From positions 14,198,001 through 14,262,000 of the forward strand of contig NC_058376.1 in assembly GCF_018350175.1 (NCBI RefSeq): DNA of 64,000 nucleotides, given 5' to 3'. The stretch comes from Felis catus. Taxonomy: Eukaryota. The notes beneath the pieces were generated by a model. It saw only the letters and a program-made list of their open reading frames with translations. It was not told the DNA's origin and searched no databases. This document shows, one piece after another, positions 26,403 to 60,144 of the stretch. Position 1 is the stretch's first letter. Each line of letters starts with the position of its first letter. Position numbers and translations under genes: made by a program.

Positions 26403-26466
<64 letters not shown>

Positions 26467-32192: not shown

Positions 32193-32480
32193 ATGTGTTG
32201 CAACTACGGCAGCTCCTGTGGCTATGGCTGTGGATATGGCCCCTATTATGGCTGTGGTTATGGAACAGGCTATGGCTGTGGCTATGGTAGGGGATGTGGC
32301 TGTGGATGTGGCTCCTGGTATGGCTGTGGCTCTGGCTGTGGATATGGCTCAGGATATGGCTGTGGCTATGGCCCCTGCTGTGACTATGGCACCAGATATG
32401 GCTGTGGCTGTGGCTATGGCTCTGGTTGCTGTGGCTACCGACCATTTTGCTATAGAAGATGTTATTCTTCTTGCTGCTAG
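32193..32480 (+). CDS. KRTAP21: Keratin-associated protein, KRTAP21-like, copy 1 (95 aa, class A)
   Basis: MCCNYGSSCGYGCGYG...CCGYRPFCYRRCYSSCC; single exon; TATA and AATAAA (32756); N- and C-termini match the KRTAP21 family. Confidence 0.92.
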   Translation: MCCNYGSSCGYGCGYGPYYGCGYGTGYGCGYGRGCGCGCGSWYGCGSGCGYGSGYGCGYGPCCDYGTRYGCGCGYGSGCCGYRPFCYRRCYSSCC

Positions 32481-32755
32481 AACATCACTGTCCAAGCCAC
32501 ATTTGCTTCTGAAATGACACACCTTAATAGAGGGCTGAGTCAAGGATCCATACCCCAAGATTTCTATATCCAAGAAATTGTATGCTTCACAGAGGGTTTG
32601 ACCACTGGTCAACTATTGTAGGATGGCATCTTGCGGCTGTATAGTATCATCTTACTTTTTTTCATATATTGGTCTTTACTTCCTTAATCTGGATTCTGCA
32701 TTGTGACCGTGGCAACAATCCTAACACCCCGCAGTTGGGGAAATCCTTTATTCTC

Positions 32756-32761
32756 AATAAA
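32756..32761 (+). terminator. Polyadenylation signal of gene 1 (paralogues at 36680, 40684, 44771, 48752, 52444, 56686, 60427)
   Basis: ctcAATAAAaatg conserved in all eight copies, followed by T/GT-rich sequence. Confidence 0.88.
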
Positions 32762-35700
32762 ATGGTTCTTTGCTTCTAACACGTCTCTGTGTTCTTGCTT
32801 GTGAATTACTCCTTTTTTCAGGTGTTATGGCTTCTCTTGAAAATTGGGCTGACAGTGTTTCATGAACCTGGGGCTCCTCCTTGATATAATACAAGCATTT
32901 CTACTCATAGGTGAATCAGAGAAAATGTCTTCTTCACCTGTTTCTCATATTCCTCTTGCTAAGGTCCTCAAAACCCAACACAAATCACATAGTATTTCAG
33001 AACTGTCACCTGGATATCACAGTGTATCTAGAATGGAGGTGGAGGGGAAAGATAAGGAGGAATGACATCTCTTCAGGAGGTTGTGACACAAGCTCAAGGG
33101 AGAGGAGGTGTGGCCTGAGTACTTCAAGGATGGAGTGGAAGAGAGAGTTTCCAGGATTAATGAGAAATTAGAAATGGACTCAGGTGTCTAATGAACTAAG
33201 GAAAGGGTAATTTAGAAGAAAGATGTGGTATTGTAGCCTCTGTATTTTAATGGAAGTCCGGATGTATTTGTTGGCATATATTGAGAGTGAGGAAATTGAT
33301 TTCAGTCACTTAACTCACAAATAGTTTAGAATGTTTATTAAAGGGAACTATCCTACATGCTGAAGATACAGGAGCAAAATTGTAGACAGGATTCCTGCTG
33401 TCAGAGCATTTCCATTCTAGTAAGTGAAAATTAAAAAAAAAAAAGAATTAATTCGGATAAATTTAGAGAGATAATTCCTATGGAGGGAATAAAACAGCAT
33501 CCTTGGGAAGAGAGTTGCAGGATGAAGTATTGGAGAGTTAGTTCAAGGAGGTATTTTGACATTTTGTGTAAAATGAATTAATGCCCGTTGAAAGAAATAC
33601 TAGAATGAACAGCTGTAGGTATAAAGAGGAAAGAGAAATTCATTAAGTTTTGGGTATGATCAGTGGTGCCACAATTTTTGGTAGAAAGGAGCAATGATCT
33701 AGTGCTGTAAATGAGCTCTCTTTGTTTGGGGCACATATAAGAATGAGATTAATAGTCCCAGTTGATTTTCTGAGTTTGAGGGCTGACTACTTTGTTAGGT
33801 TCTGACTTCAGTGTTCTATCCCTGTGTGACTTTCCAAATCTCTAACATTTGACCCTACATCAGAAAATGTCTTTTCAGACTGAATTTCCACCAATAGAAA
33901 AAATGAGTCATTGTCTCATCTCCATGACAAGGGTCACTGCACAAAGTTTGGATCTGAGGAACTTGGAGCTAGGAGACTAAAACACGGCCAATTCCAAGGA
34001 AGATGGCTCTGTCATCAAGGACAGCCCTGAAGTGAGGTTATGCCCAGGATATAATGTGTCTTGCTGATGAATAAATAAGGCTTCTTTTAAGGGTTGAATA
34101 GTTTTCATAGATAGGATATTTGTAAGTAATTTCTGGGGACTGACTGTGCTCTGGGTTAATCTGAGGTGGGTACCACTTACAAACAGCAGAAAGGAATGCT
34201 AATAATTACAGTTTGTTAAAAATTTACTCATTGTTTCATTATGTTCTTGTCTTTGAAGGCTTTCTGAAAGAGGGAAGAATATCAAATTAGGCACTTGTAT
34301 AATAATTTACAAATCCACTAAAGGGTTAATAATTTATTAGGTATATAAGATAATTTATACAACAGGAAAAATGTGTTCATAAACCGACGACTATCTCCAA
34401 ATGTGAAATTTGAGGCTCACTCAAAGAACATTTGTGACTCTCAGCTTGAATGGATTAAGAACATTGTGATAATACATTGAATTATCTTATAACTACTAAA
34501 TGCACACCAACGTTGGAACACATTTTTGTTTTAATTCATTTTTTAATTGGGGAAATATTGACTGATTTCAAATTATGTGCCAGGAACTCTACCTACTGGT
34601 GATACTGATGATTTCTTCTGCCGTAATGGATCTGTATCCAGAGATCTGAATGGAAAGGTACTAGAAATAATGCAATTAAAGCTAGAAAACTTTTCCAATA
34701 GTTCAGAAGTATTGTGACAAGAAAGAGGGTGTTAGAAAAACAAGTGTGTATTCTAGGGATTTTGTGCATTAGAGTTTATAGCTGTGAATTTCAAGAATGG
34801 TAGAAAAGTAGAGAAAATTAAGTCAAAGAACAATTGTAATGGATATAGTTTCCTTAAACTTCCTGTAAGGGATGAATCACAGCAGAGTGATCAGATAGAC
34901 CAGTGACCAGTATTAGAAAAAGTAATAGGAAATACTGTCAAGTGAAGGAAAAATGTCTACTAAGGAAGGATCACAGGAAAGGAAATCAGCAGTTTTATGA
35001 AATTCCCAGTTGAAAGCATTTAATAAAAGACTGGATGTCACACATTTCTTTGTTGGGAAATTTTAGTGTGGAAGTAGAGGGAATAATCTTCCTGAATTTG
35101 TACTCTCTTCCAGCTTGGATTTTATAGTTGTCACATTAAAAAGTAATGCAAATTTTGGATTCTGCCAGATTCATAAAATGGTGATTGATGTAAAGCCTAG
35201 ACAATGAAGATAAGCAAAAACATCCCAAGAAACAACCATACAAACAAAAAACAGNNNNNNNNNNNNNNNNNNNNNNNNNNNNNNNNNNNNNNNNNNNNNN
35301 NNNNNNNNNNNNNNNNNNNNNNNNNNNNNNNNNNNNNNNNNNNNNNNNNNNNNNNNNNNNNNNNNNNNNNNNNNNNNNNNNNNNNNNNNNNNNNNNNNNN
35401 NNNNNNNNNNNNNNNNNNNNNNNNNNNNNCTGTTGATGGAATGCTTCTATATTTGGTTTACCTGAAGAGAAAGGAAATATTTGGAATTAGACACCAATAA
35501 ATAGAGAAGCTATAGATGCAAGGTTATAAACCAAGGTTTCTAGATCTCAACACTATTGGCATAGTATAGCAGATATTTCATTGTTGTTGGGGTTTGTTCT
35601 GTGGCTTGGGATTAGAGTCTTCCCTCATTTCTCCCACATGCAGCTAGTAGGTATCTGCAGTAGGTATCTGGATGTCAGAATCCTGGCAAGATGTTGCAAT

Positions 35701-36153
35701 GTTTCCAGGAAGGAGATGAAGTATTTCTTTCCTTGTGGGCAGAGGTAGATATTTTGGGAGTGTGGAAAGATCAAGGAGGACAAAACTTTCCAAAATTTCC
35801 CTCAGCCTTATTATATAAAGTATGTTAAAAGATAGGACGTTGTAAACATGATTCCAGTTTTACCTAAAGCACATGATTCTCCTGAAATATTTTTTTTTGG
35901 CAGAGTGAATTAAAATGCTGTTCTTTAAATAAAACTGGAGTCTCCATATTAATGAGATCACGTTACCCAAGACATTATTGATTGTTGACAGTGACTGGAA
36001 CAACACAGTTGCTTACATATTTGTTGGGTAAGTCAGGGGATGAGTGACATGCTCTGCTAATTACTGACAGTATATAAGGGTCCAAAGCAAGTAGAAGACA
36101 CGCACTTCACCACATCCTCCCACAACCCACGTGAATTCTCTTCTCTTGGCAAG

Positions 36154-36399
36154 ATGTGTTGCAACTACGGCAACTCCTGTGGCTATGGCTGTGGATATGG
36201 CTATGGCTGTGGATGCAGTCCCTATTATGGCTGTGGCTATGGCCTCCGTTATGGCTGTGGCTATGGCTCAGGATATGGCTGTGGCTATGGCTCCTGCTGT
36301 GGTTATGGCACCGGATATGGCTGTGGCTATGGCTATGGCTCCAACTTCTGTGGCTACCGGCCATTTTTCTATAGAAGATGTTATTCCTCTTGCTGGTAG
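36154..36399 (+). CDS. KRTAP21: KRTAP21-like copy 2 (81 aa, class B, ends SSCW)
   Basis: Intact G/Y/C-rich ORF; TATA 36071; AATAAA 36680. Confidence 0.92.
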   Translation: MCCNYGNSCGYGCGYGYGCGCSPYYGCGYGLRYGCGYGSGYGCGYGSCCGYGTGYGCGYGYGSNFCGYRPFFYRRCYSSCW

Positions 36400-37355: not shown

Positions 37356-37412
37356 GAAGAAGAAGAAGAAGAAGAAGAAGAAGAAGAAGAAGAAGAAGAA
37401 GAAGAAGAAGAA
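37356..37412. repeat. (GAA)19 microsatellite
   Basis: Directly visible. Confidence 0.96.
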
Positions 37413-39016
37413 TTAATCAGATAAATGTAGAGAGATAGTTTCTATGGTGTGAATAAAACAGCATCCTTGGGAAGAGAGTGCAGGTTTAAGTTTTGCAGAA
37501 TTAATTTAATGTGGTTTTCTGACATTTTGTTCAAATGAACTGATGTCACTTTCAAGAAAATACTAGAAAGGACAGTTGTAAATGTAAAGGGGAAAGAGAA
37601 AATCATGAGTTTTGGGTATGATCAGTGGTGCCACAATTTTTAGTGCAAAAGAACAAAGCCTAGTGCTTTAAATGGGCTCATTGATGGGGCAGATATAAAA
37701 TGAGATAAATAGTTCCAGTTGATTTTCTGAGTTTGAGGGAGTACTACTTTGTTGTACTACTTTGTTGTAGACCTCCAACATTTAGGTCCTACAAAAAAAA
37801 TGTCTTTCAGACACAATTTCAACCAGCAGAATAAAAGACTCAATGTCTCATCTCCATGACAAGGGTCACTGCTCAAAGTCTGGGTCTGAGAACCCTTGCT
37901 CCTGGGCTCCACGACATGGCCAATTCCAAGGAAGATGGCTCTGCCATCAAGGTCAGTCCTGGAGGGAAACTACACCCAGGATATAATGTGTCTTACTGAC
38001 GAGGAAAGAGATGTTCTTTCAAGAGTTGGGCAATTCTCACAGATGGAACATCTGTAAGTCATTTCTGAAGACTGACTGTGTTCTGGATAAATCAGAGGTG
38101 AGAAAATTGTATACACAGGGAGAGTCAATTCCAATCATTACAGTTTGTTGAACATCTAACTTATGGTTTCATTAGGTTCATTTTCATTGAACACTACCTG
38201 AAAGAAGGCAGAATAGTATTCATTAGGCACCTATCTCATACGTTCTATTTCTAGTAAAGGGTTTATCATTTATTAGGCATATGAGGCAACTTGTATATCT
38301 GTAGAAATGACTTTGAAAACTAACAGATATCTTCACAAGGTGAAATTTGTGACTGTTTTAGCCATGAACATTTGGGACTTTCGGCTTGAATGAATTGAGA
38401 ACATTATGACCTGTATCCACATTCTTATAGATTCTAAGTGATACCAACGTTTGAACATGTTTTTTTTTTTTAATGTGTCTGTTTGTTATTGGCAGAAATA
38501 TTGAGTTGAGATTTGTGCCAGGCACTATGCTTAGAACTAACCGATGATTCAAGGACACACAGAAGAAAAGATCTTTTCCTGCCATTAAACATCAGTGTCC
38601 CGAGCTCTTAATGGAAGTGTATAGAAATAAGGCAATAAAGATAGGAAGTGTTTTTCAATAGTTTGTGGGCATTGTGACCAGAGAGTGGCTGTTTAAAAAG
38701 TATCATGCCTATTCCAGGGAACTCATGCATTGGAATTTATGGTTTTGAATTTCAATAATGATGGAAAAGTAGGAAAATTAAAGGTAAAGAACATTTGTAA
38801 GGGGATATATATGTTTTAAATTTGTTGTTAGGGACGAAGCATAGTGGAGTGATCAGATAACCCATAAGCAATGTTAGAAAAAAAAAAACAGTAGGAAATA
38901 TTCTCAACCGGAGGAAAAATATCTAATAATGAAACTTCTCCGAAAAGGAAATCAGCAGTTTTATTAAAATCCCTGTGGAAGTCATTCAATAAAGGACTGG
39001 ATGACACTCATTTCTT

Positions 39017-39250
39017 TCTTTTTTTTTTTTTTTTTTTTTAATTTTTTTTTCAACGTTTATTTATTTTTGGGACAGAGAGAGACAGAGCATGAACGGGGGA
39101 GGGGCAGAGAGAGAGGGAGACACAGAATCGGAAACAGGCTCCAGGCTCTGAGCCATCAGCCCAGAGCTGATGGGGCTCGAACTCCCGGACCGTGAGATCG
39201 TGACCTGGCTGAAGTCGGACGCTTAACCGACTGCGCCACCCAGGTGCCCC
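39017..39250 (-). mobile_element. Young felid SINE (SINEC_Fc)
   Basis: CpG-rich, long polyT, perfect 17-bp TSD gatgacactcatttctt at 39000-39016 and 39251-39267; empty paralogous sites at ~51023 and ~58982. Confidence 0.97.
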
Positions 39251-40180
39251 GATGACACTCATTTCTTGATGTTGAAATTTGAGTGTGGAGCAGAAGAAAT
39301 GATACCCGATTTGTACTCATTTCCAACTAGGATAGTTGTCACAGTGAAAAGTAATTTAAATTTTGGATTCTGCCTGAATCTGAACATAGTAACCTAGACA
39401 ATGAAGATAAGCAAAAACATCACAAACAAACAAACAAACAATATCCCCCCTCCCCACCACTGTATGTCTGGTGAGTGAAAGGTTGGAGTTTCAGTTTAGT
39501 TGAGAAGAAAGGGAATATTTGTCCTTAGACACTAGTAAAGAGAGAATCTCATTTATAGATGTGAGGCTACAAAGCTAGGTTTCTTGATCTCAGCACGTTT
39601 GCCATTTGACATGAGGAATTTCAATGATGTTGAGGGCTATTCTGTGTCCTGAAATGGGCATCATCCTAGGTTTTACCACACAGAGCCAGTAGGTATCTGC
39701 GGCAAGTATGTGGGTGGAAGAAGCCTGGTAAAATGTTGCAATGATTCCAGAAAGGAGATGAATTTTTCTTTCCTTATGGACAGAGGTAGATGTTTTACAA
39801 GTGTGGAGAGATCAAGAAGGAGAAATATTTCCTAAAAATCCCTCAGCCTTCTTGTTAAATGATTGAAGAGTGTGAACATGGATTTTACTTTTACTTAGAG
39901 CACATGATTCTACCGAGAAATGTTTTATGGCAGAATGAAATAAAATGCTGTTTTTAATAAACCTGGAGTCTCCTTAATAATGAGCTTACATTGCCCAAGA
40001 CATTGTTGATTGTTGACAGTGACTGGCACAGTACAGTTGCTTACATATTTGTTGGGTAAGTCAGGGGATGAGTGACATGCTCTGCTATTACTGACAGTAT
40101 ATAAGGGTCCAAAGCAAGTAGAAGACACGCACTTCACCACATCCTCCCACAACCCACGTGAATTCTCTTCTCTTGGCAAG

Positions 40181-40402
40181 ATGTGTTGCAACTATGGCAA
40201 CTCCTGTGGCTATGGCTGTGGATATGGCTATGGCTGTGGATGCGGTCCCTATTATGGCTGTGGTTATGGCCTCCGTTATGGCTGTGGCTATGGCTCCTGC
40301 TGTGGCTATGGCACCAGATATGGCTGTGGCTATGGCTATGGCTCCAACTGCTGTGGCTACCGGCCATTTTTCTATAGAAGATGTTATTCCTCTTGCTGCT
40401 AG
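40181..40402 (+). CDS. KRTAP21: KRTAP21-like copy 3 (73 aa, class B)
   Basis: Intact ORF with 21 Gly, 16 Tyr and 16 Cys in 73 aa; TATA 40098; AATAAA 40684. Confidence 0.93.
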   Translation: MCCNYGNSCGYGCGYGYGCGCGPYYGCGYGLRYGCGYGSCCGYGTRYGCGYGYGSNCCGYRPFFYRRCYSSCC

Positions 40403-42329
40403 AACATCAATGTCCAAACCCCACTTGCTTCTGAAACGACACACCTTAAGAGAAGGCTCATTCAAGGATCTATACCCCAAGATTTATATATCGAAAACAT
40501 TGTATGTGTAATAGAAGATTTGACCTCCAGTAACATTTGTAAGATGGCAGCTTGTGGCTTGAGGCTATGGAGTATCATCTAACAGTTTTCCAAAGTGTTG
40601 GTCTTACTCCCTTAATATGGATTCTGTGTTGTGACTGTGGCAAGGATTTGAACATCCCACATTTGGGCAAACCCCTTATTCTCAATAAAAATGTTTCATT
40701 CCTTCTATCAAATGTCTCTGTTCTTTCTTGAGAAAGCCTCCTTTCTTGAGGTGTTATGGCCTCTCTTGAAAATGGGCTGACAATATATTTCATGTACCCG
40801 GGTCTCTTTCTGGATATCATACCAGCATTTCTTCTCTTACATGCATCGATATAGTGTCTTCTCCACCTAAGTCTCATATCCCTAACACTCCAACACAAAT
40901 CACACAGTATTCCAGAACTGTGCCCTGGAAATCACACTGTAGGTATAATGCATGTGGAGGGAAAAGACGAGGATGAGGAGGGATGGCATCTCCTGGGAGG
41001 TTGTGACAGAAGCCAAAGGGGAAGGGGGTGTGGCCTAAGCACTTAAAGGATGAATGTGATGGAAGAGAGAGTTTCTGGTATTCATGAGAAATTGGAAGCT
41101 GCCTCAGCTGAAGTGTAAAGAACCAAGGAAAGGGTACGTTAGAAGCAAAGCGTGGTATCATATCATCTGAATTGGATGGATTTGCTAATATATTTGTTGG
41201 CATAAAATGAGTTTGAAGATACTGATTTAAGTCACTTAATTGACAAATCCTTTTGAATGTGTTTGAAAGAGAACCATCCTACACACTGAATACACAGCAG
41301 ATAAATTGTAGATGAATTTCCTACCCTCAGAGTGTATATATTTTGTTGGTTTTAATAAATATTTTACAAATTAATTATGACAAATTTAGACACATAATTT
41401 GCTTGGAGAGAATAAAACAGCTTCCTGGGGAAGAGAATGAAGGTTCATTAAATATTGGAGAGATAGTTCGGGGTGGTACTTTGATGTTCGGTGTCAAACG
41501 AACTGATCAAGTTGAAAGAATGGGCAGAAAGGGCAGTACCAAGCAGAAAGGGGAAGAGAAATTCATTATGTGTTGGGTATGATCAATGGTGCCACAGTTT
41601 TCAGTTGAAAAGAGGAAGGAGTAGGGCTTTAATGGTGTCCTTTAGTGTCTTCCCTGGTGCGTATACAAGAATGGAATGAGAAGCCCAGTCCTTTCTGAGT
41701 TTGAGAACCTTCCGTTTGTTGGGGTCTGACTTCAGTGTCCTTTCCTCAGGTGCCATTCCAGAGCTCTCACCTTTAGATCCTACAATAGAAAATGTATTTC
41801 AGACTCAAATTCAACCAGCAGTGAAAAACCAATCACTGACTCATATGCATGGCAAAGGTGAGTGCACAAAGTCTGAGTGTGAGGATCCTAGAGCCAGGAG
41901 ACTCTAAACCATGTCAAATTCCAAGGAGGATGGCCTTGCCATCGAGGACAGCCCTGGATGGAGGCTATGCCCAGTATAGTAAGTGTCCTGCTGATGAAGA
42001 ATTAAGCCTTCTCTCAAGAGATGGAATATATGGGATAGTCTAAATCTGGAACACATGGGATAGTCTAAATCTGATGTGATGACTGAGTGTGCTCTGAGTT
42101 AGTCTAGGATGGGTACATCCTACAAACAGGGAAAAGAATTTTAATAATTACAGTTTTATGAAAATCTATTCATTGTTCCATTATGTTCCTTGTCTTTGAA
42201 AGCTTCTGAAGGAGGGAAGAATATCATCAATTAGGCACGTATATTATAATTTACATATGTAGTAAAGTTCTGGTTATTTATAAGGCATAGAAGAACATAT
42301 GGAACAATGTGTTCACAAACAGACAACAA

Positions 42330-42564
42330 TATTAATTAATTAACTAATTAATTAATTAGAAAAATTTTCATTTATTTATTTATTTTTTGAGAGATGGTGT
42401 CAGCCTGGGAGGGGCAGAGTGAGACGGAGACAGAGAATGTGAACCAGGTTTCAGGCTCCAGGCTGTCAGCATAGAGCCCTACATGGGGCTCGAACTCACA
42501 AACTGTAAGATCATCACCTGAGCTGAGGTTGGGCTCTTAACCAACTGAGCCACCCGGGAATCCC
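42330..42564 (-). mobile_element. Can-SINE in a Z-type spacer (same insertion as 54032-54322)
   Basis: SINE body flanked by cagacaac direct repeats; AT-rich (TTAA)-like tail. Confidence 0.9.
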
Positions 42565-44226
42565 CAGACAACTACCTTTAAAGTGTGAAATTTGAAACTC
42601 TCTTAGTCCAAGAATATAGGAGATTTTCAGGTTGAATGGAATGAGAATATTGCGATAATATATTGAATTATCTTATAACTTCTAAATGGCACACCAACAT
42701 TTCAACACATTTTTGTCTTAACGCATTTTTTAATTGGAGATATACTGACAGAATTCAAATTATGTGCAAGGCTGTACTTCATCTGGAAAGAGGGGTACAC
42801 AGAATAAAAGATTTTTTTTTCCTGCCATTATGCATCTGTATTCAGAAACCTGAATGGAAAGGTACTAGAAATAATGCAATAGAGCTAGAAAACTTTTTCA
42901 ATAGGTCAGGAGTATTGTGACAAGAAAGAGGGTGTTAGAAAAGCAAAGTGGGTATTTTAGGGATTTTGTGCATTAGAGCTGATAGTTGTGAATTTCAAGA
43001 ATGGTAGACAAGTAGCGAAAATTAAGCTACAGAACAATTGTAGTGGGTATATTTTCCTTAAACTCGTTGTAAGGGATGAATCACAGCAGAGGGATCACAT
43101 ACCCCAGTCTAAAAGTAGTAGGAAATACTGTCAACTGAAGGAAAAATGTCTACTAAGGAAAGATCACAGGAAAGGAAATCAGCAGTTTTATGAAATACCC
43201 AGGTGAAAGCATTCAGGAAAAGACTGGTTGTCACACATTTCTTTGATGGGAAATTTTAGCGAGGAGTAGAAGGAATGATTTTCCTGAGTTTCTACTCCCT
43301 TGCAGCTTGGATTTTTTAGTTGTCATAGTAAAAAGTAATGCAAATTTTGGATTCTGCCAGATTCATACAATCGTGATTTATGTAAAGCCTAGGCAACCAC
43401 GATATGCAAAAGCATCCAAGAAACAACCATACAAACAAAAAACAGAGACACCTTGCTTCCTTCCTTCCTTCCTTCTTTTCTTGTTTTCTTTTTGACTTCA
43501 TGTCTGGTAATGGAATGATTGGATAAAGGGTTTAGTTAAGAAAAAAGGAAGTATTTGCAATTAGACACCAATAAAGTGAGAATATATAGATGTAAGATTC
43601 AAACCAAGGTTTTTGATCTCAACACTATTGGCATTGTACAGCAGAAGTTCCAGTGTTGTTGGGCTTTGTTCTGATGGCTGGAATTTGCATCTTCCCTCCT
43701 TTATCACACATGGAGCTAGTAGGTATCTGCAGTAGGTATCTGGGTGTGAGCAGGCAGGCAAAAATTTGCAATGATTCCAGAAAGGAGATGGGAGTTATTT
43801 CCTTCCCTATGGGGACATGTAGATAGTTTAGGAAAGAGGAGAGATCAAGAGGATAAAATTTTCCTAAATGTCCCTCAACGGTGATATATAAAGTAAATTA
43901 AGTGACGGTAAGTTGTTAAGGTGGATACCAGTTTTACATATGGCCCATGATTCTAGTGAGAGAATTCTTTGGCAGAGCAAATTAAAATGCTGTTCTTTAA
44001 ATATAACTGGAGACTCCAACAGAATGAAGTCACATTTCCCAAGACTTTTATTGATTGTTGACAGTGAGTGGCATACCAGAAGTGCTTACATATTTGTTGG
44101 GTATGTCAGGGGATGAATGGTATGTTCTGTCAATTACTGACAGTATATAAAGGTCCAAGGCTAGTAGAAGACACACAGTTCACCACATCCTCTCACAACC
44201 CACGTGAATTCTCTTCTCTTGACAAG

Positions 44227-44496
44227 ATGTGTTGCAACTACAGCAACTCTTGTGGCTATGGCTGTGGCTATGGCTGTGGCTATGGCTACGGCTGTGGCTA
44301 TGGCCCCTATTACAGCTGGAGTTATGGACCTGGCTATGGCTGTGGATATGGCTCCTGGTATGGCTGTGGCTCTGGCTGTGGATATGGCTCCTGCTGTGGC
44401 TATGGCCCCAGATATGGCTGTGGTTGTGGCTATGGCTCCAGCTGCTATGGTTACCGGCCATTTTGCTATAGAAGATGTTATTCTTCTTGCTGCTAG
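44227..44496 (+). CDS. KRTAP21: KRTAP21-like copy 4 (89 aa, class A)
   Basis: MCCNYSNSCGYG..RPFCYRRCYSSCC; TATA 44144; AATAAA 44771. Confidence 0.92.
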   Translation: MCCNYSNSCGYGCGYGCGYGYGCGYGPYYSWSYGPGYGCGYGSWYGCGSGCGYGSCCGYGPRYGCGCGYGSSCYGYRPFCYRRCYSSCC

Positions 44497-48237: not shown

Positions 48238-48471
48238 ATGTGTTGCAACTACGGCAACTCTTGTGGCTATGGCTGTGGATATGGCTACGGCTGTGGCTAT
48301 GGGCCCTATTATGGCTGTAGTTATGGACCTGGCTATGGCTGTGGATATGGCTGTGGATACGGCTCCTGCTGTGGCTATGGCACCAGATATGGCTGTGGCT
48401 GTGGCTATGGCTCTGGTTGCTGTGGCTACCGGCCATTTTGGTATAGAAGATGTTATTCTTCTTGCTGCTAG
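48238..48471 (+). CDS. KRTAP21: KRTAP21-like copy 5 (77 aa, class A)
   Basis: MCCNYGNSCGYG..RPFWYRRCYSSCC; TATA 48155; AATAAA 48752. Confidence 0.92.
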   Translation: MCCNYGNSCGYGCGYGYGCGYGPYYGCSYGPGYGCGYGCGYGSCCGYGTRYGCGCGYGSGCCGYRPFWYRRCYSSCC

Positions 48472-51400
48472 AACATCACTGTCCAAGACACATTTGCTTC
48501 TGAAGTGGCACGGCTTAAGGGAGGGCTGATTCATTGATTTATACCCCAAGATTTCTATATCCAATGAATTGCATGCTTTTGGTAATTGTGACCTCTATTT
48601 AGCAATTGTATGAAGGCTTCCTGTGGCTGAGGCTATGTGGTATCCTCTGACTATTTTCCAAATGTTAGTCTTCACTTCCCTAATCTGTGTTCTTTGTTGA
48701 GACTGTAGCAACATATCTAAAATCCCACAGTGAGGCAAATCCCTTATTCTCAATAAAAATGTTTCATTTTTTTTCTAAGTAATCTCTGTGTTCTGGCTAA
48801 TGAATGACTCCTTTTTGAGGTGTATGGCATCTTTTGAATCTTGGGCAACAATATATTTCATGAATCTGGGTCTCTTCCTAGATATAATATAAACCTTTCT
48901 TCTCTTATGTGCATCGGAGATAATGTCTTCTCCTATTTCTTGTATCCATAACACTGCAATATAAATCACACTGTGTAAGAACTATGTCCTTGAGGTAACA
49001 CTGTATCTAGAATGGAGCTGAGGGCTGGAGGGGTAAGAGGAAGAGTTAGGACACCTCTTTGGGAAGTTGTGACACAAGCTCAAGGGGGAGGAAGTATGGC
49101 CTGAGTGCTTCGAGGATGAATGGGGTTGAAGAGAGAAATTTTGGGATTAATGAGAAATTGGGAGCCGCCTCTGTTGAGATGTAAGAAACTAAGGAAATGA
49201 GAAGCAAAAGAAAAATGTGATATTGTATTATCTGCATTTTGATGGAAGTGCAAATACATTTTTTGCATATACTGAGTTTCAGTAAATTGATTTAAGTCCA
49301 TTAATTTCCAAATTGTTTTGAATGTTTTTGAAAGGGAACTGTCATACACTCTGAAGGCACAGTAGAAAAATTATAAGTGAATTTCTTGCTGTCAGATGGT
49401 TTCATTCTAGTAGGTTAAAAAAAAAGAAGAATTAATTCAGATAAATTTAGAGAGATAATTCCTATGGTGTGAATAAAACAGCATCCTTGAGAAGATTGAA
49501 GTATTGCAGAATTAGTTCAAGGATGTATTTTGACATTTTCTGTCACATGAACTGATGTCAGTTTCCAGAAATACTAGAAAGGACAGTTGTAAATGTAAAG
49601 TAGAAACAGAAATACATAAGGTTTTGGTATGATCAGTGGTGCCACGAGTTTTAGTGCAAAAGAACAATGGCTAGTGCCTTAAATGGGCTCTCTAATGGAG
49701 CAGATATAAAGTGTAATTAATAGTTCCAGTTAATTTTCTGAGTTTGAATGCGTACTACTTTGATGGATTCTGATTTCAGTGTGTTTCTCTCATGAGACTT
49801 TCCAGACCTCTAACATTTAGATCCTACAACAAAAATTGTCTTTCAGACACAATTTCAACCAGCAGAATAAAAGACTCACTGTCTCGTCTCCATGGCAAGG
49901 GTCACTGCACAAAATCTGGGTCTGAGAACCTTGGTTCTGGAGACTCCACAACTTGGCCAGTTCCAAGGAAGATGGCTCTGCCATCAAGGTCAGTCCTGGA
50001 GGGAAACTAAGCCCAGGATATAATGTGTCTTACTGATGAGGAAAGAGATGTTCTTTCAAGAGCTGGACAATTCTCACAGATGGAACATCTGTAAGTCATT
50101 TCTGGGGACTGACTGTGCTCTGGATAAATCAGAGGTGACAAAATTGTATACACAGGGAGAGTCAATTCCAATCATTACAGTGTGTTGAACATAGAACTTA
50201 TGGTTTCAGAAGGTTCATTTTCATTGAACACTACCTGAAAGAGGGCAGAATAGTATTTATTAGGCACGTATCTCATACTTTCTATTTCTAGTAAAGAGTT
50301 TATCATTTATTAAGTATATGACATAACTGGTATATCTGTAGAAATGACTTTGAAACCTAACAGATATCTTCAAAAGGTGAAATTTGTGACTGTTTTAGCC
50401 ATGAACTTTTGGGACTTTCGGCTTGAATGAATTGAGAACATTATGACCTATATCCACATTCTTATAGATTCTAAGTGATACCAACGTTTGAACATGGTTT
50501 TGTTTTAATGTGTCTTGTTTGTTATTGGCAGAAATATTGAGTTGAGATTATGTGCCAGGCACTATGCTTAGAACTAACCGATGATTCAAGGACACACAGA
50601 AGAAAAGATTTTTTTTTGCCATTAAACATCAGTGTCCTGAGCTCTTAATGGAAGTATATAGAAATAAGGCAATAAAGATAGGAAGTGTTTTTCAATAGTT
50701 TGTGGGCATTGTGACCAGAGAGTGGCTGTTTAAAAAGTATCATGTCTTGTGCATTGGAATTTATGGTTTTGAATTTCAATAATGATGGAAAAGTAGGAAA
50801 ATTAAAGGTAAAGAACATTTGTAAGGGGATATATATGTTTTATATTTGTTGTTAGGGATGAAGCATAGTGGAGTGATCAGATAACCCATAAGCAATATTA
50901 GAAAAAAAAACCAGTAAGAAATATTCTCAACCGAAGGAAAAATATCTAAAAATGAAACTTCTCGGAAAAGGAAATCAGCAGTTTGCTTAAAATCCCTGTA
51001 GAAGTCATTCAATAAAGGACTGGATGACTCTCATTTCTTGGTGTTAAAATTTGAGTGTGGAGTAGAAGAAATGATACCTGAATTTGTACTCATTTCCAAC
51101 TAGGATTTCATTGTTGTTACAGTGAAAAATAGTTTAAATTTTGGAATCTGCCTGGATATGAACATAGTGACCTGGACATTGAAGATAAGCAAAAACATCA
51201 CAAACAAATAAACAACATCCTCCCCCCCCCCCCCCCACTGTATATCTGGTGATGAAAGGGTTGGACTTTCAGTTTATTTGAGAAGGAGGGGAATCTTTGG
51301 ACATAGACACGAGTAAAGAGAGAATCTAATTTATAGATGTGAGGGTATAAAGCTAGGTTTCTCGATCTCAGCACTTTTGACATTTGACATGAGGCACTTC

Positions 51401-51957
51401 AGTGGTGTTGAGGGATTTTCTGTGTCATGAAATGGGCATCATCCTAGGTTTTACCACACAGAGCCAGTAGGTATCTGCGGCAGGTATGTGGGTGCAAGAC
51501 CTGGTAAAATATTGCAATGATTCCAGAAAGGAGATGAATTTTTCTTTCCTTATGGACAGAGGTAGATGTTTTACAAGTGTGGAGAGATCAAGAAGGAGAA
51601 ATAGTTCCTAAAAACCCCTCAGCATTCTTGTTAAATGATTGGAGATTGTGAACATGGATTTTGGTTTTACTCAGAGTCCATGATTCTACTGAGAAATGTT
51701 TTTTGGCAGAATGAAATAAAATGCTGTTTTTAATAAACCTGGAGTCTCCTTAATAATGAGCTTACATTGCCCAAGACAATGTTGATTGTTGACAGTGACT
51801 GGCACAGCACAGTTGCTTACGTATTTGTTGGGTATGTCAGGGGATGAGTGACATGCTCTGCTAATTACTGACAGTATATAAGGATCCAAAGCAAATAGAA
51901 GACACACACTTCACCACATCCATTCACAACCCACGTGAATTCTCTTCTCTTGGCGAG

Positions 51958-52161
51958 ATGTGTTGCAACTACGGCAACTCCTGTGGCTATGGCTGCGGAT
52001 ATGGCTATGGCTGTGGATGTGGTCCCTATTATGGCTGTGGTTATGGCCTCCGTTATGGCTGTGGCTATGGCACCGGATATGGCTGTGGCTATGGCTATGG
52101 CTCCAACTTCTGTGGCTACCGGCCATTTTTCTATAGAAGATGTTATTCCTCTTGCTGCTAG
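51958..52161 (+). CDS. KRTAP21: KRTAP21-like copy 6 (67 aa, class B)
   Basis: Intact ORF; TATA 51875; AATAAA 52444. Confidence 0.92.
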   Translation: MCCNYGNSCGYGCGYGYGCGCGPYYGCGYGLRYGCGYGTGYGCGYGYGSNFCGYRPFFYRRCYSSCC

Positions 52162-54031
52162 AACATCACTGTCCAAACCCCACTTGCTTCTGAAATGACA
52201 CGCCTTTAGAGAAGGCTCCTTCAAGGATCTATACCCCAAGATTTATATATCGGGAACATTGCATGTGTCATAGAAGTTTTGACCTCCAGTAACATTTGTA
52301 ATATGGCATCTTGTGGCTTGAGGCTATGGAATATCATCTAACAGTTTTCCAAAAAGTGTTGGCTTACTCCCTTAATATGGATTCTGTGTTGTGACTGTGG
52401 CAAGGATTTGAACATCCCACATTTGGGCAAATCCCTTATTCTCAATAAAAATGTTTCATTCCTTCTATCAAATGTCTCTAGTCTCTCTTGAGAAAGCCTC
52501 CTTTCTCTAGGTGTTATGGTCTCTCTTGAAAATTGGACTGACAATATATTTCATGTACCGGGGTCTCTTTCTTGATATCATACAAGCATTTCTTCTCTTA
52601 CATGCATCGATATAATGTCTTCTCCACCTATGTTTCATATCTCTAGCACAGTACTGCAGAACTGTGCCCTGGAAATCACACTGTAGGTAGAATGGATGTG
52701 GAGGGAAAAGACGAGGATGAGGAGGGATGGCATCTCCTGGGAGGTTGTGACAGAAGCCATAGGGGAAGGGGGTGTGGCCTGATCACTTAAAGAATGAATG
52801 TGATGGAAGAGAGAGTTTCTGGCATTCATGAGAAATTGGAAGCTGCCTCAGCTGAAGTGTAAAGAACCAAGGAAAGGGTACGTTAGAAGCAAAGCGTGGT
52901 ATCATATCATCTGAATTGGATGGATTTGCTAATATATTTGTTGGCATAAATTGAGTTTGAAGAAGTTGATTTAAATCACTTAATTGACAAATCCTTTTGA
53001 ATGTGTTTGAAAGAGAACCATCCAACACAATGAATACATAGTAGAAAAATTGCAGATGAATTTCCTACTCTCAGAGTGTTTACATTTTGTTGGTGTTAAT
53101 AAATATGTTACAAATTAATTATGACAAATTTAGACACATAATTTGCTTGGAGAGAATAAAACAGCTTCCTGGGGAAGAGAATGAAGGTTCATTAAATATT
53201 GGAGTGATAGTTCGGGGTGGTACTTTGATGTTCAGTGTCAAACGAACTGATCAAGTTGAAAGAATGGGCAGAAAGGGCAGTACCAAGCAGAAAGGGGAAG
53301 AGAAATTCATTATGTGTTGGGTATGCCACATGGTGCCACAAGTTTCAGTTGAAAAGAGGAAGGAGTAGGGCTTTAATGGTGTCCTTTAGTGTCTTCCCTG
53401 GTGCGTATACAAGAATGGGATGAGAAGCCCAGTCCTTTCTGAGTTTGAGAACCTTCCGTTTGTTGGGGTCTGACTTCAGTGTCCTTTCCTCAGGTGCCAT
53501 TCCAGAGCTCTCACCTTTAGATCCTACAATAGAAAATGTATTTCAGACTCAAATTCAACCAGCAGTGAATAACCAATCACTGACTCATATGCATGACAAA
53601 GGTGAGAGCACAAAGTCTGAGTGTGAGGATCCTAGAGCCAGGAGACTCTAAACCATGTCAAATTCCAAGGAGGATGGCCTTGCCATCGAGGTCAGCCCTG
53701 GATGGAGGCTATGCCCAGTATAGTAAGTGTCCTGCTGATGAAGAATTAAGCCTTCTCTCAAGGGATGGAATTATCACACATGGCATAGTCTAAATTTGAT
53801 GTGATGACTGAGTGTGCTGTGAGTTAGTCTAGGATGGGTACATCGTACAAACAGGGAAAAGAATTCTAATAATTACAGTTTGTTGAAAATCTATTCATTG
53901 TTTCATTATGTTCCTTGTCTTTGAAGGCTTCTGAAGGAGGGAAGAATATCATCAGTTAGGCATGTACATTATAATTTACATATCTAGTAAAGTTCTGGTT
54001 ATTTATAAGGCATAGAAGAACATATGGAACA

Positions 54032-54322
54032 NNNNNNNNNNNNNNNNNNNNNNNNNNNNNNNNNNNNNNNNNNNNNNNNNNNNNNNNNNNNNNNNNNNNN
54101 NNNNNNNNNNNNNNNNNNNNNNNNNNNNNNNNNNNNNNNNNNNNNNNNNNNNNNNNNNNNNNNNNNNNNAGGGGCAGAGTGAGAAAGAGACACGGAATCT
54201 GAATCAGGCTTCAGTCTCCAGGCTGTCAGCACAGAGCACTACACGGGGCTCGAACTCACAAACCATAAGATCATCACCTGAGCTGAGGTTGGACACTTAA
54301 CCAACTAGCCACCCAGGCACCC
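54032..54322 (-). mobile_element. Can-SINE, paralogous duplicate of 42330-42564 (tail in N gap 54032-54169)
   Basis: Same flanks (catatggaaca / cagacaacta) and shared diagnostic bases (aagatcatcacctgagctgaggttgg). Confidence 0.88.
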
Positions 54323-56139
54323 TCAGACAACTATCTTTAAGGTGTGAAATTTGAGACTCTCTTAGTCCAAGAATATTGGAGATTTTCGGGTTGAATGGAA
54401 TGAGAATATTGCGATACTATATTGAATTTTTTTATAACTTCTAAATGGCACAACAACATTTCAACACGGTTTTGTTCTAATGCATTTTTTAATTGGACAA
54501 ATACTGATGGAATTCAAATTATGTGCAAGGCTGTACTTTCTCTGGAAAGAAGGGTGCACAGAATAAGAGACTTTTTTTCCCTGCCATTATGCATCTGTAT
54601 TCAGAAACCTGAATGGAAAAGTACTAGAAATAATGCAATAGAGCTAGAAAACTTTTTCAATAGGTCAGGAGTATTGTGAGAAGAAAGAGGGTGTTAGAAA
54701 AGCAAAGTGTGTATTCTAGGGATTTTGTGCATTAGAGCTTATAGTTGTGAATTTCAACAATGGTAGAAAAATAGCGAAAATTAAGCTAAAGAACAATTGT
54801 AGTGGGTATTTTCCTTAATTTCTTTTAGTTTTCCTTAAATTTTCCTTAAATTTGTTTTAAGGGATGAATCACAGCAGAGGGATCACATACCCCAGACTAA
54901 AAGTAGTAGGAAATACTTTCAACTGAAGGAGAAATGTCTACTAAGGAAAGATCACAGGAAAGGAAATCAGCAGTTTTATGAAATTCCCGTTTGAAAGGAT
55001 TCAGGAAAAGACTGGATGTTCCACATTTCTTTGATGATGGGAAATTTTAGCGAGGAGTAGAAATAATGATTTTCCTGAGTTTATACACCCTTCCAGCTTG
55101 GATTTTATAGTTGTCACAGTAAAAAGTAATGCAAATTTTGGATTCATAAAATGGTGATTGATGTAAAGCATAGACAACCAAGAAGAGCAGAATATCCCAA
55201 GAAACAACCATGCAAANNNNNNNNNNNNNNNNNNNNNNNNNNNNNNNNNNNNNNNNNNNNNNNNNNNNNNNNNNNNNNNNNNNNNNNNNNNNNNNNNNNN
55301 NNNNNNNNNNNNNNNNNNNNNNNNNNNNNNNNNNNNNNNNNNNNNNNNNNNNNNNNNNNNNNNNNNNNNNNNNNNNNNNNNNNNNNNNNNNNNNNNNNNN
55401 NNNNNNNNNNNNNNNNNNNNNNNNNNGAATGATTGGATAAAGTGTTTAGTTAAGAAAAAAAGGAAGTATTTGGAATTAGATACCAATAAAGAGAGAATAT
55501 AGAGATGTTAGATTCAAACCAAGGTTGCTAGATCTCAACACTATTGGCATTGTACAGCAGAAGTTCCAGTGTTGTTGGGCTTTGTTCTGATGGCTGGAAT
55601 TAGCATCTTCCCTCGTTTATCACACATGGAACTAGTAGGTATCTGCAGTAGGTATCTGGGGGTGAGCAGGCAGAAAAAATTTGCAATGATTTCAGAAGGG
55701 AGATGGGAGTTATTTCCTTCCCTATGGGGACAGGTAGATAGCTTAGGAAAGAGGAGATAATAAGAGGACAAAATTTTCCTAAATGTCCCTCAATGATGAT
55801 ACATAAGGTAAATTAAATGACAGTGAGTTGTGAAGGTGGGTACCAGTTTTACATATGGCCCATGATTCTAGTGAGAGATTCTTTGGCAGAACAAATTAAA
55901 TGCTGTTCTTTAAATATAACTGGAGACTCCAACAGAATGAAGTCATATTTCCCAAGACTTTTATTGATTGTTGACAGTGAGTGGCATACCAGAAGTGCTT
56001 ACATATTTGTTGGGTATGTCAGGGGATGAATGGTATGTTCTGCCAATTACTGACAGTATATAAAGGTCCAAGGCTAGTAGAAGACACACAGTTCACCACA
56101 TCCTCTCACAACCCACGTGAAATCTCTTCTTTTGACAAG

Positions 56140-56403
56140 ATGTGTTGCAACTATGGCAACTCCTGTGGCTATGGCTGCGGATATGGCTACGGCTGTGGCT
56201 ATGGCACCAGATATGGCTGTGGCTGTGGCTATGGGCCCTATTATGGCTGTAGTTATGGACCTGGATATGGCTGTGGATATGGCTGTGGATACGGCTCCTG
56301 CTGTGGCTATGGCACCAGATATGGCTGTGGCTGTGGCTATGGCTCTGGTTGCTGTGGCTACCGGCCATTTTGGTATAGAAGATGTTATTCTTCTTGCTGC
56401 TAG
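56140..56403 (+). CDS. KRTAP21: KRTAP21-like copy 7 (87 aa, class A)
   Basis: Same protein as copy 5 plus a 10-aa insertion; TATA 56057; AATAAA 56686. Confidence 0.92.
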   Translation: MCCNYGNSCGYGCGYGYGCGYGTRYGCGCGYGPYYGCSYGPGYGCGYGCGYGSCCGYGTRYGCGCGYGSGCCGYRPFWYRRCYSSCC

Positions 56404-59400
56404 AACATCACTGTCCAAGAAACATTTGCTTCTGAAGTGGCACGGCTTAAGGGAGGGCTGATTCATTGATTTATATCCCAAGATTTCTATATCCAAAAAG
56501 TTGGATGCTTTTGGGAATTTGTGACCTCAAGTTAGCATTTGTATGAAGGCATCCTGTGGCTGAAGGCTATGTGGTATCCTCTGACGATTTTCCAAATGTT
56601 AGCCTTTACTTCCCTAATCTGGGTTCTTTGTTGAGACTGTGGCAACATATCTAAAATCCCACAATTAGGCAAATCCCTTATTCTCAATAAAAATGTTTCA
56701 TTTTTTTCCAACAAATCTTTGTGTTCTTGCTTGTCAATGACTCCTTTCTGAGGTCTTATGTTATCTTTTGAATCTTGGGCAACAATATATTTCATGAACC
56801 TGGGTCTCTTCCTAGATATAATATAAGCATTTCTTCTCTTATGTGCATCAGAGATAATATCTTCACCTATTTCTTGTATCCATAACTCCTCAACATAAAT
56901 CACACTGTGTAAGGAGTATGTCCTTGAGATAACACTGTATCTAGATTGGAGCTGAAGGCTGGAGGGGTAAGAGGAGGAGTTAGGACACCTCTTCGGGAAG
57001 TTGTGACACAAGCTCAAGAGGGAGGAAGTATGGCATGAGTGCTTCAAGGATGAAAGAAATTGAAGAGAGAATTTTTGGGATTAATGAGAAATTGGGAGCT
57101 GCCTCTGCTGAGATATAAAATAGTAAGGAAATGAGAAGCAAGAGAATAATGTGGTATTGTAACATCTGCATTTTTATGGAAGTGCAAATACATTTGTTGG
57201 CATATATTGAGTTTGAGTAAATTGATTTAAGTCAATTAATTGACAAATCGTTTTGAATGTTTTTGAAAGGGAACTGTCTTACACCCTGAAGGCACAGTAG
57301 AAAAGTTATAGGTGAATTTCTTGCTCTCAGAGTGGTTCCATTCTTGTAGGTTAATAAAAAAAAAAAAGAAGAAGGATTAATCAGATAAATGTAGAGAGAT
57401 AATTCCTATGGTGTGAATAACATAGCATCCTTGGGAAGAGAGTGCAGGTTTAAGCTCTGGAGAATTAATTGAAGGAGGTTTTTTGACATTTTGTGTCAAA
57501 TGAACTGATGTTACTTTCAAGAAAATACTAGAAATACAGTTGTAAAGGGGAAAGAGAAAATCATGAAGTTTTGGGTATGATCAGTGGTGCCCCAATTTTT
57601 AGTGCAAAAGAACAATGGCTAGTGCCTTAAATGGGCTGTCTTTGTGTGGGGCAGAAATAGAATGAGATTAATAGTTCCAGATTGATTTTCTAAGTTTGAT
57701 AGCTTACTACTTTGTTGGATTCTGATTTCAGTGTGCTTCTCACTTATGCCTTTACAGACCTCTAACATTTATATCCTACAACAAAAAAAGTCTTTCAGAC
57801 ACAATTTCAACCAGCAGAATAAAAGACTCAATGTCTCATCTCCATGACAGGGGTCACTGCACAAAATCTGGGTCTGAGAACCCTTGGTCCTGGAGACTCC
57901 ACCACATGGCCAATTCCAGGGAAGATGGCTCTGCCATTAAGGTCAGTCCTGGAGGGAAACTACACCCAGGATATAATGTGTCTTACTGATGAGGAAAGAG
58001 ATGTTCTTTCAAGAGCTGGACAATTCTCACAGATGGAACATCTGTAAGTCATTTCTGAAGACTGACTGTGTTCTGGATAAATCAGAGGTGAGAAAATTGT
58101 ATACACAGGGAGAGTCAATTCCAATCATTACAGTTTGTTGAACATCTAACTTATGGTTTCATTAGGTTCATTTTCATTGAACACTACCTGAAAGAAGGCA
58201 GAATAGTATTCATTAGGCACCTATCTCATACGTTCTATTTCTAGTAAAGGGTTTATCATTTATTAGGCATATGAGGCAACTTGTATATCTGTAGAAATGA
58301 CTTTGAAAACTAACAGATATCTTCACAAGGTGAAATTTGTGACTGTTTTAGCCATGAACATTTGGGACTTTCGGCTTGAATGAATTGAGAACATTATGAC
58401 CTGTATCCACATTCTTATAGATTCTAAGTGATACCAACGTTTGAACATGTTTTTTTTTTTAATGTGTCTGTTTGTTATTGGCAGAAATATTGAGTTGAGA
58501 TTATGTGCCAGGCACTATGCTTAGAACTAACCGATGATTCAAGGACACACAGAAGAAAAGATCTTTTCCTGCCATTAAACATCAGTGTCCCGAGCTCTTA
58601 ATGGAAGTGTATAGAAATAAGGCAATAAAGATAGGAAGTGTTTTTCAATAGTTTGTGGGCATTGTGACCAGAGAGTGGCTGTTTAAAAAGTATCATGCCT
58701 ATTCCAGGGAACTCATGCATTGGAATTTATGGTTTTGTATTTCAATAATGATGGAAAAGTAAGAAAATTAAAGGTAAAGAACATTTGTAAGGGGATATAT
58801 ATGTTTTAAATTTGTTGTTAGGGACGAAGCATAGTGGAGTGATCAGAACCCATAAGCAATGTTAGAAAAAAAAACAGTAGGAAATATTCTCAACCGGAGG
58901 AAAAATAATAATGAAACTTCTCCGAAAAGGAAATCAGCAGTTTTATTAAAATCCCTGTGGAAGTCATTCAATAAAGGACTGGATGACACTCATTTCTTGG
59001 TGTTGAAATTTGAGTGTGGAGTAGAAGAAATGATACCTGAATTTGTACTCATTTCCAACTAGGATTTCATAGTTGTCACAGTGAAAAGTAATTTAAATTT
59101 TGGAATCTGCCTGGATATGAACATAGTGACCTAGACAATGTAGATAAGCAAAAATATCACAAACAAACAAACAAACAAACAATATCCCCCCTCCCCACCA
59201 CTTTATGTCTGGTGAGTGAAAGGTTGGAGTTTCAGTTTAGTTGAGAAGAAAGGGAATATTTGTCCTTAGACACTAGTAAAGAGAGAATCTCATTTATAGA
59301 TGTGAGGCTACAAAGCTAGGTTTCTTGATCTCAGCACTTTTGCCATTTGACATGAGGAATTTCAATGATGTTGAGGGCTATTCTGTTTCCTGAAATGGGC

Positions 59401-59922
59401 ATCATCCTAGGTTTTACCACACAGAGCCAGTAGGTATCTGCGGCAGGTATGTGGGTGCAAGAAGCCTGGTAAAATGTTGCAATGATTCCAGAAAGGAGAT
59501 GAATTTTTCTTTCCTTATGGACAGAGGTAGATGTTTTACAAGTGTGGAGAGATCAAGAAGGAGAAAATTTTCCTAAAAACCCCTCAGCCTTCTTATTAAA
59601 TGATTGAAGAGTGTGAACATGGAGTTTGGTTTTACTTAGAGTCCATGATTCTACTAAGAAATGTTTTTTGGCAGAATGAAATAAAATGCTGTTTTTAATA
59701 AACCTGGAGTCTCCTTAATAATGAGCTCACGTTGCCCAAGACATTGTTGATTGTTGACAGTGACTGGCACAGCACAGTTGCTTACATATTTGTTGGGTAA
59801 GTCAGAGGATGAGTGACATGCTCTGCTAATTACTGACAGTATATAAGGGTCCAAAGCAAGTAGAAGACACGCACTTCACCACATCCTCTCATAACCCACG
59901 TGAATTCTCTTCTCTTGGCAAG

Positions 59923-60144
59923 ATGTGTTGCAACTACGGCAACTCCTGTGGCTATGGCTGCGGATATGGCTATGGCTGTGGATGCAGTCCCTATTATGGC
60001 TGTGGCTATGGCCTGCGTTATGGCTGTGGCTATGGCTCCTGCTGTGGCTATGGCACCGGATATGGCTGTGGCTATGGCTATGGCTCCAACTGTTGTGGCT
60101 ACCGGCCATTTTTCTATAGAAGATGTTATTCCTCTTGCTGCTAG
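59923..60144 (+). CDS. KRTAP21: KRTAP21-like copy 8 (73 aa, class B)
   Basis: Intact ORF; TATA 59840; AATAAA 60427. Confidence 0.92.
   Translation: MCCNYGNSCGYGCGYGYGCGCSPYYGCGYGLRYGCGYGSCCGYGTGYGCGYGYGSNCCGYRPFFYRRCYSSCC

Follow-up and report, generated by a model that had tools for sequence, protein, structure and literature searches.

A 64,000-nucleotide stretch of the domestic cat (Felis catus) genome (assembly GCF_018350175.1, contig NC_058376.1, forward-strand positions 14,198,001 to 14,262,000; hereafter the window, in whose own coordinates all positions are given) contains a tandem array of genes resembling KRTAP21, a subfamily of keratin-associated proteins of the high-glycine/tyrosine type (HGT-KRTAPs). 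Of the ten rows from a six-frame scan of the window for Gly/Tyr-rich or Cys-rich open reading frames (ORFs), eight are KRTAP-like. With per-unit extraction, all eight proved to be intact, single-exon genes on the + strand, encoding 67–95 amino acids (aa) in 204–288 bp:

32193..32480, + strand: u1, 95 aa; TATA box 32107, AATAAA 32756; old unit, own class
36154..36399, + strand: u2, 81 aa; TATA box 36071, AATAAA 36680; mosaic
40181..40402, + strand: u3, class B, 73 aa; TATA box 40098, AATAAA 40684
44227..44496, + strand: u4, 89 aa; TATA box 44144, AATAAA 44771; mosaic
48238..48471, + strand: u5, class A, 77 aa; TATA box 48155, AATAAA 48752
51958..52161, + strand: u6, class B, 67 aa; TATA box 51875, AATAAA 52444
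56140..56403, + strand: u7, class A, 87 aa; TATA box 56057, AATAAA 56686
59923..60144, + strand: u8, class B, 73 aa; TATA box 59840, AATAAA 60427; downstream spacer cut by an L1 element

From u1 to u8 the start-to-start pitch is 3961, 4027, 4046, 4011, 3720, 4182 and 3783 bp. In every unit a TATATAA box lies 83–86 nt 5′ of the ATG and an AATAAA signal 275–283 nt past the stop, which confirms the description in the initial annotation of eight intact, same-orientation ORFs at about 4-kb spacing, each with its own TATA and polyadenylation signal. The termini quoted there hold as a consensus but not literally: u1 starts with MCCNYGSS, u4 with MCCNYSNS, and u2 ends in SSCW. The residue following RPF in the C-terminal motif varies among units (C, F or W), and the eight proteins are eight distinct sequences. 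By self-BLASTN, entire units of about 4 kb align over kilobases at 69–94% (E = 0), far above chance; none of the ORFs contains a run of N, and several occur in spacers. Over 1–60000, up to the L1, 29 of 30 2-kb bins show a positive GC skew on the + strand, on which all the KRTAP genes are encoded.

Homology with the array ends near 60582, at this L1:

60590..64000, − strand: L1 retrotransposon, 3′ end and ORF2 remnants; terminates the array homology and runs past the window edge

Because the L1 extends from near 60590 past the right end of the window, eight is a minimum copy number. We take the ORF2 segments to be of L1 origin. An older L1 fragment at 13566–14865, matching 60668–61982 on the + strand, is 73–80% similar to the one at the right end.

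Assignment to KRTAP21

Protein searches ranked KRTAP21-1-like or KRTAP21-2-like proteins first with both queries used. With u3, the top 8 of 14 hits carry KRTAP21 names and the KRTAP6-2-named hits rank 12th and 13th; with u1, the top 7 of 9 hits are KRTAP21-named. The top-ranked names read 'keratin-associated protein 21-1-like' and come from snow leopard, cheetah, lynx, zebra, fox and muntjac; such names are mostly automatic annotations, and the subfamily placement is by search ranking rather than by a cross-subfamily tree. The pooled composition of the eight proteins (G 30.7, Y 21.7, C 21.2, S 8.3 and L 0.6%) is nearest the KRTAP21 row in Table 2 of Wu et al. 2008 (PMC2528016). That table gives KRTAP21, the most Cys-rich HGT subfamily, means of G 36.8, Y 21.0, C 17.2, S 12.6 and L about 1%, and gives 4–5% Leu for subfamilies 6, 7, 8, 19 and 20. 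Gly and Tyr together make up 50.7–54.0% of each of the eight proteins, within the 35–60 mol% given as the definition of HGT-KRTAPs in PMC8657448, and the ORFs, uninterrupted between TATA box and AATAAA, have the size of HGT-KRTAP genes (single exon, ORF under 800 bp). The felid top hits and the composition therefore both bear out the earlier identification of the genes as KRTAP21.

Copy number among mammals

KRTAP21 gene counts (disrupted genes in parentheses) are tabulated by Wu et al. for human, 4(1), mouse, 4(1), rat, 3, dog, 10(0), and platypus, 11(1), and by Khan et al. 2014 (PMC4180150) for panda, 8(1), cow, 11, pig, 9, horse, 6(1), bat, 8(2), armadillo, 13, sloth, 12(1), and marmoset, 8(2). 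Cat is absent from the species tables of both surveys, and our literature searches found neither a felid KRTAP count nor a report of KRTAP expansion or copy number for Felidae or the domestic cat.

In supplement 1 of PMC2528016, all ten dog genes lie on the minus strand of chr31, and the coordinates printed there yield start-to-start gaps of 10625, 7276, 4056, 4262, 4714, 4334, 4128, 4046 and 3846 bp. Supplement 2 of PMC4180150 lists eight panda rows on one strand of one scaffold, two of which overlap; with one of these dropped for spacing, seven loci are left, separated by four gaps of 3.7–4.9 kb and two of about 10 kb. A same-strand array of 7–10 KRTAP21 genes at a pitch of about 4 kb is already published, then, for two caniforms. 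Because dog and panda carry such arrays, eight copies in cat is an ordinary number and not an expansion, and human is the low case. The initial annotation was right that the human family is small (four genes, one disrupted, in the table of PMC2528016). Its expansion reading had compared the array with human only, a comparison that makes an ordinary carnivore array resemble an expansion.

These observations, together with those on exchange and age described below, indicate that this is very probably the KRTAP21 tandem array as carried by felids, with size and pitch as in dog and panda, and that unequal crossing-over and gene conversion have likely remodelled it on the line to cats.

Probable exchange of segments between units

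Two units combine parts of different affinity. The core promoter and coding sequence (CDS) of u2 are 97–98% like class B (u3, u6 and u8), its 3′ untranslated region (UTR) is distinct, and its downstream spacer is like those of u5 and u7. The 5′ flank and promoter of u4 are 96–97% like u5 and u7, and its CDS and 3′ side are divergent and nearest u1. Segment trees place u2 with u3, u6 and u8 in the core promoter (ultrafast bootstrap 99) and CDS (95) and with u5 and u7 in both spacer segments (100); they join u4 to u5 and u7 with a value of 100 for the 5′ flank and of 96 for the promoter, and do not do so downstream. Permutation tests on the longest identical run reached their floor of p = 0.0005 in 3 of 28 pairs of gene regions (u2–u3, u4–u5 and u4–u7) and in 2 of 21 pairs of spacers (u2–u7 and u1–u5), with the other pairs weaker. 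On this sequence evidence, u2 and u4 appear to be mosaics made by conversion or unequal exchange. Two felid proteins, each a single annotation compared by eye, show similar combinations: a cheetah protein has an upstream segment identical to that of u5 and a u4-like CDS, and a snow leopard protein has an upstream segment identical to that of u4 and a CDS ending like u2.

The most recent trace lies between the u2 and u7 spacers:

38031..38990, + strand: tract almost identical to 58021–58970 (949 bases aligned, 2 of them differing); the stretches on either side differ by 4–22%

Its age is about 0.5–0.7 million years (Myr), or up to 2.5 Myr by the Poisson bound, and it is either a recent conversion or an assembly error. 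Beside it lies a CanSINE, a short interspersed element (SINE):

39010..39250, − strand: CanSINE in the u2 spacer, flanked by a perfect 17-bp target-site duplication; its subtype IIB features are T>G in the A-box and the lack of a T near position 51

The site is empty in the u5 and u7 spacers. Such an element, like the clustering of the u1 long form with a Lynx protein, marks the genome as felid, in line with the feliform assignment of the initial annotation. Young and adjoining the near-identical tract, this element may be polymorphic among cats and may serve as a unit-specific marker. The u2 spacer also holds a perfect (GAA)19 microsatellite at 37356–37412.

Age of the duplications

Distances between units fall into layers. 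In the 3′ UTRs, classes differ from one another by 20–30% and the closest pairs by 6–11%. In the old layer, Kimura two-parameter distances (K) between spacers are 0.195 for u1–u4, 0.295 for u1–u2 and 0.355 for u2–u3. At the felid substitution rate quoted in PMC9290555, 1.54–2.3e-9 per site per year, these correspond by rough extrapolation to 42–63, 64–96 and 77–115 Myr. The feliform–caniform split is quoted in PMC4084570 as 45–60 Myr; as judged from sequence distance, the oldest unit classes (K 0.2–0.36) would be as old as or older than it. Among named felid proteins, that of lynx is similar to u1, that of cheetah to u4 and that of snow leopard to u2, which places the origin of the array before the felid radiation.

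The middle layer comprises two long matches, 37960–44230 against 49980–56143 (K 0.063, with 345 of 5754 sites differing) and 48472–52600 against 56404–60582 (K 0.086), together dating to about 14–28 Myr. The first match defines a higher-order block:

37960..44230, + strand: first copy, running from a spacer through a class B gene and another spacer to a class A promoter; K 0.063 to 49980–56143
49980..56143, + strand: second copy; a third, partial copy at about 57950–60582

A second CanSINE is common to two of the spacers concerned:

42340..42562, − strand: CanSINE with a doubled 7-mer as in subfamily II, at the same site in the u6 spacer (54170–54322)

In the alignment the homologous spacers of u1 and u4 lack it. 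Because it is common to the u3 and u6 spacers, it gives a date for the u3/u6 block duplication; PMC4084570, which also supplied the subtype diagnostics, puts the age of subfamily II at about 35 Myr or less. Subfamily calls were made by alignment and from forward-strand sequence; a fuzzy regular expression for the subfamily I motif was dropped, having matched all 12 elements.

These distances and the common SINE suggest that duplication in the lineage leading to cats likely produced about three of the eight units. What is specific to the cat lineage would thus likely be no more than a later round of copying and rearrangement affecting some units. In the history that we propose, three to five unit classes would date back to the origin of Carnivora or beyond, to judge from the paralogue distances (K 0.2–0.36). 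A two-gene block of about 8 kb would then have been duplicated twice, about 14–28 Myr ago; later exchanges would have swapped promoter and CDS segments (u2 and u4), about 1 kb of spacer may have been homogenised within roughly the last 0.5–2.5 Myr, and older members to the left would have decayed by birth and death.

A bolder version, which we offer only tentatively, is that cats, with about as many KRTAP21 genes as dog, built their array anew on their own, the 8-kb block having been duplicated on the felid stem and paralogues still swapping core promoters and CDS repeats within the felid radiation, as in the cheetah and snow leopard combinations above. If true, the locus would be an active hotspot of copy-number and promoter-swap variation tuning the composition of the felid hair cortex, counter to the published view of little conversion in HGT-KRTAPs.

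At the other extreme, all eight units might be ancient one-to-one orthologues of dog genes, with conversion alone producing the young distances and the copy number unchanged. Conversion is visible in the array and dog does have eight genes at a pitch of about 4 kb, but the 91–94% similarity runs unbroken over 5–6 kb of genes and spacers, and one SINE insertion is common to two spacers. Given this continuous similarity and the common SINE, duplication is a simpler explanation than conversion over several kilobases, and we regard strict orthology as unlikely. The initial annotation had considered that dog and other outgroups might share the same eight units. The number is indeed similar in dog and panda, but about three cat units seem younger than the cat–dog split, and the cat units are therefore probably not eight one-to-one orthologues of dog genes.

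Slightly less probable again is the proposal of the initial annotation itself, in which two or three ancestral genes were amplified to eight in feliforms or felids under selection for fur properties. The blocks at K 0.063–0.086 and the common subfamily-II-like SINE do imply some duplications after the cat–dog split, and human, mouse and rat have only 3–4 genes. However, in the published tables the cat count does not stand above the general outgroup level (dog 10; panda 7–8, with 7 loci distinct; cow 11; pig 9; horse 6; bat 8; sloth 12; armadillo 13), the dog pitch of 3.8–4.7 kb matches that of the cat array, at least three spacer classes differ by K 0.2–0.36, and dN exceeds dS (the nonsynonymous and synonymous divergences) in none of 28 terminal pairs. 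The outgroup counts have already largely refuted this proposal.

Constraint and predicted function

Constraint was computed on 40 gap-free terminal codons, the repetitive middle of the genes, which is not reliably alignable, being left out. Over the 28 non-independent pairs, the pooled proportions of synonymous (pS) and nonsynonymous (pN) differences are 0.176 and 0.043, a ratio of about 0.22, which suggests functional genes; no sign of positive selection was found at the termini (dN > dS in 0 of 28 pairs). Gap runs are multiples of three in 8 of 8 cases in the CDS, compared with 13 of 124 in the spacers.

Most copies might nevertheless be silent, chance or conversion having kept their ORFs open. 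Decay has had little time to act on the young copies, and in simulations 58–69% of single ORFs survive neutrally at K 0.035. By contrast, for all eight together the simulated neutral survival is about 0.03 with K at 0.035 and 5e-5 with K at 0.1; these figures assume independence, and the units are less independent than that. The pN/pS ratio also argues against silence, as does the retention of TATA box and polyadenylation signal in all eight units, whereas the remnants to the left of the array have lost the ATG or the frame. We judge silence of most copies about as improbable as the amplification. The array is real and probably functional, its several near-equivalent copies probably serving dosage.

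By analogy, the encoded proteins are likely hair-cortex matrix proteins. HGT keratin-associated proteins (KAPs) are described in PMC6680380 as the first KAPs made after the keratin filaments, mainly in the orthocortex, and in PMC8657448 as cross-linking through Cys and, as proposed there, Tyr stacking. Each cat unit would be transcribed from its own TATA promoter, with its own polyadenylation signal, in differentiating cortex cells of the hair shaft, as sheep and human KAP21 suggest. The 7–10 kDa proteins would pack between keratin filaments, cross-linked via Cys disulfides and Tyr stacking as in the model of PMC8657448. Literature searches found no felid expression paper for KRTAP21. A search of sequencing runs with a u3 stretch listed 24 runs, of which 20 contain part of it and 7 of these are recorded as RNA (metatranscriptomes, word share 0.25–0.48); we do not count these matches as evidence of expression.

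Points against the interpretation

Several observations weigh against the reading of the locus as a working KRTAP21 array that was reworked in cats. The Pfam KRTAP family PF11759 matches five of the eight proteins weakly at E < 0.1 (E 5.6e-5 to 0.012), with one of the eight above the 21.1-bit cut-off; the majority of named KRTAP21-like homologues are likewise without a precomputed Pfam hit. Dog and panda were compared by counts and coordinates only, from which the sharing of units with them is deduced. The common SINE fits the published subfamily II motif at 4 of 7 letters, its assignment resting mainly on length. Any conversion restarts the clock between paralogues, and the felid rate is here applied to ages far past 12 Myr. 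In the passages of PMC2528016 and PMC4180150 that treat conversion, both surveys report little of it in HGT-KRTAPs, unlike the cat array. In-frame CDS indels are expected in any case through slippage of hexamer repeats, and the 949-bp near-identical tract could stem from an assembly error.

That some copies are themselves assembly artefacts, haplotypes set in tandem, is very unlikely: the tract with its 2 differences and the several runs of N in spacers would suit it, but no pair of units is near-identical along its full length (the nearest long matches are 91–94%), all eight proteins differ, and presence or absence of a SINE separates the nearest spacers.

Protein records for the units

Exact look-ups in the searched protein collection found none of the eight short forms and, from the four units with an open upstream frame, one of the three long forms tested. 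An exact record was thus found for one of the eight genes, the 134-aa long form of u1 from an upstream ATG at 32076, which is clustered with a Lynx KRTAP21-1-like protein. Within that collection, the earlier suspicion of under-annotation is supported. At 32076–32192 of the window, and in the corresponding 114 nt ahead of u4, u5 and u7, an in-frame upstream ATG opens a frame that reads through the TATA box, and an N-terminal extension of 38–39 aa is present in public models of u1 and of lynx, cheetah, snow leopard, zebra and muntjac proteins. We do not accept this extension as genuinely coding: it would start from an ATG about 31 nt 5′ of the TATA box, and four of the eight units (u2, u3, u6 and u8) have an interrupted frame. 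For the same reasons, the recorded 134-aa form of u1 is likely a gene-caller artefact. The array adds a felid entry where both KRTAP surveys lack cat, and for seven of its eight genes the look-ups found no exact protein record.

Decayed relatives to the left of the array

KRTAP21 genes are expected in KRTAP cluster 2, with KRTAP8 on one side and KRTAP20/6 genes on the other. Within the 64-kb window no intact HGT-KRTAP neighbour of the array was found, the flanking sequence holding three decayed remnants only, which were located with a profile built from the eight units:

23660..28288, + strand: decayed ninth unit, with a frameshifted gene remnant without ATG and 3′ UTR at 23677–24135 (E 2.5e-28)
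26847–27633 and 28063–28288, + strand: further pieces of the decayed ninth unit, distal spacer (E 8e-92) and a 5′ flank piece
11872..12098, + strand: HGT-KRTAP pseudogene, with GTG at the expected start and a frameshift ahead of the C-terminal RPFCY-type motif
1201..1395, + strand: HGT-KRTAP pseudogene remnant, with a frameshift and a stop

The three decayed genes are on the same strand, about 11–12 kb apart. The decayed ninth unit and the remnants at 11.9 and 1.2 kb fit birth-and-death turnover. Within the ninth unit, 26363–26600 is (AT)n-rich with a short internal duplication and gives a spurious minus-strand ORF of 85 aa rich in Tyr and Ile.

Comparison with known KRTAP arrays

The ovine genes KRTAP21-1 and KRTAP21-2, as described in PMC6680380 and PMC7073969, are likewise single-exon Gly/Tyr genes with in-frame length variation in mid-ORF. 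Sheep KAP21-2 matches a cat unit query at E 1e-8, and the KRTAP21-1 forward primer printed in the sheep paper resembles, by eye, the felid 5′ UTR. They differ in that ovine KRTAP21-1 has skin expressed-sequence-tag (EST) support and is associated with wool yield (PMC6680380), and KRTAP21-2 with staple length (PMC7073969); no felid counterpart of this EST support or of these trait associations was found in the literature. Because KRTAP21 variants associate with wool traits in sheep, copy-number or promoter-swap variation among cats, if it exists, would be a testable candidate for coat texture.

The dog array, KRTAP21-1 to -10 in PMC2528016, shares with the cat array the subfamily (by name), the single strand, similarly short ORFs (192–411 bp, as against 204–288 bp in cat) and, in its last eight genes, a spacing of 3846–4714 bp. 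It differs in having ten genes as against at least eight in cat, and the younger block duplications belong to the felid array, a comparison made by counts and coordinates. The giant panda array on scaffold GL193493.1, as listed in PMC4180150, also lies on one strand at a mostly 4-kb pitch, and differs in its 7 distinct loci, one partial and one flagged as a pseudogene, and its two gaps of about 10 kb.

Pangolins form the sister order of Carnivora. Their HGT-KRTAP array, as reported in PMC9848057, is the published precedent for conversion in this group of genes: it too is tandem and homogenised by non-allelic conversion, and it was collapsed in older assemblies. There, however, a true lineage-specific expansion is tied to scales, with other subfamilies lost, whereas in cat the number of genes is ordinary and the homogenisation partial.

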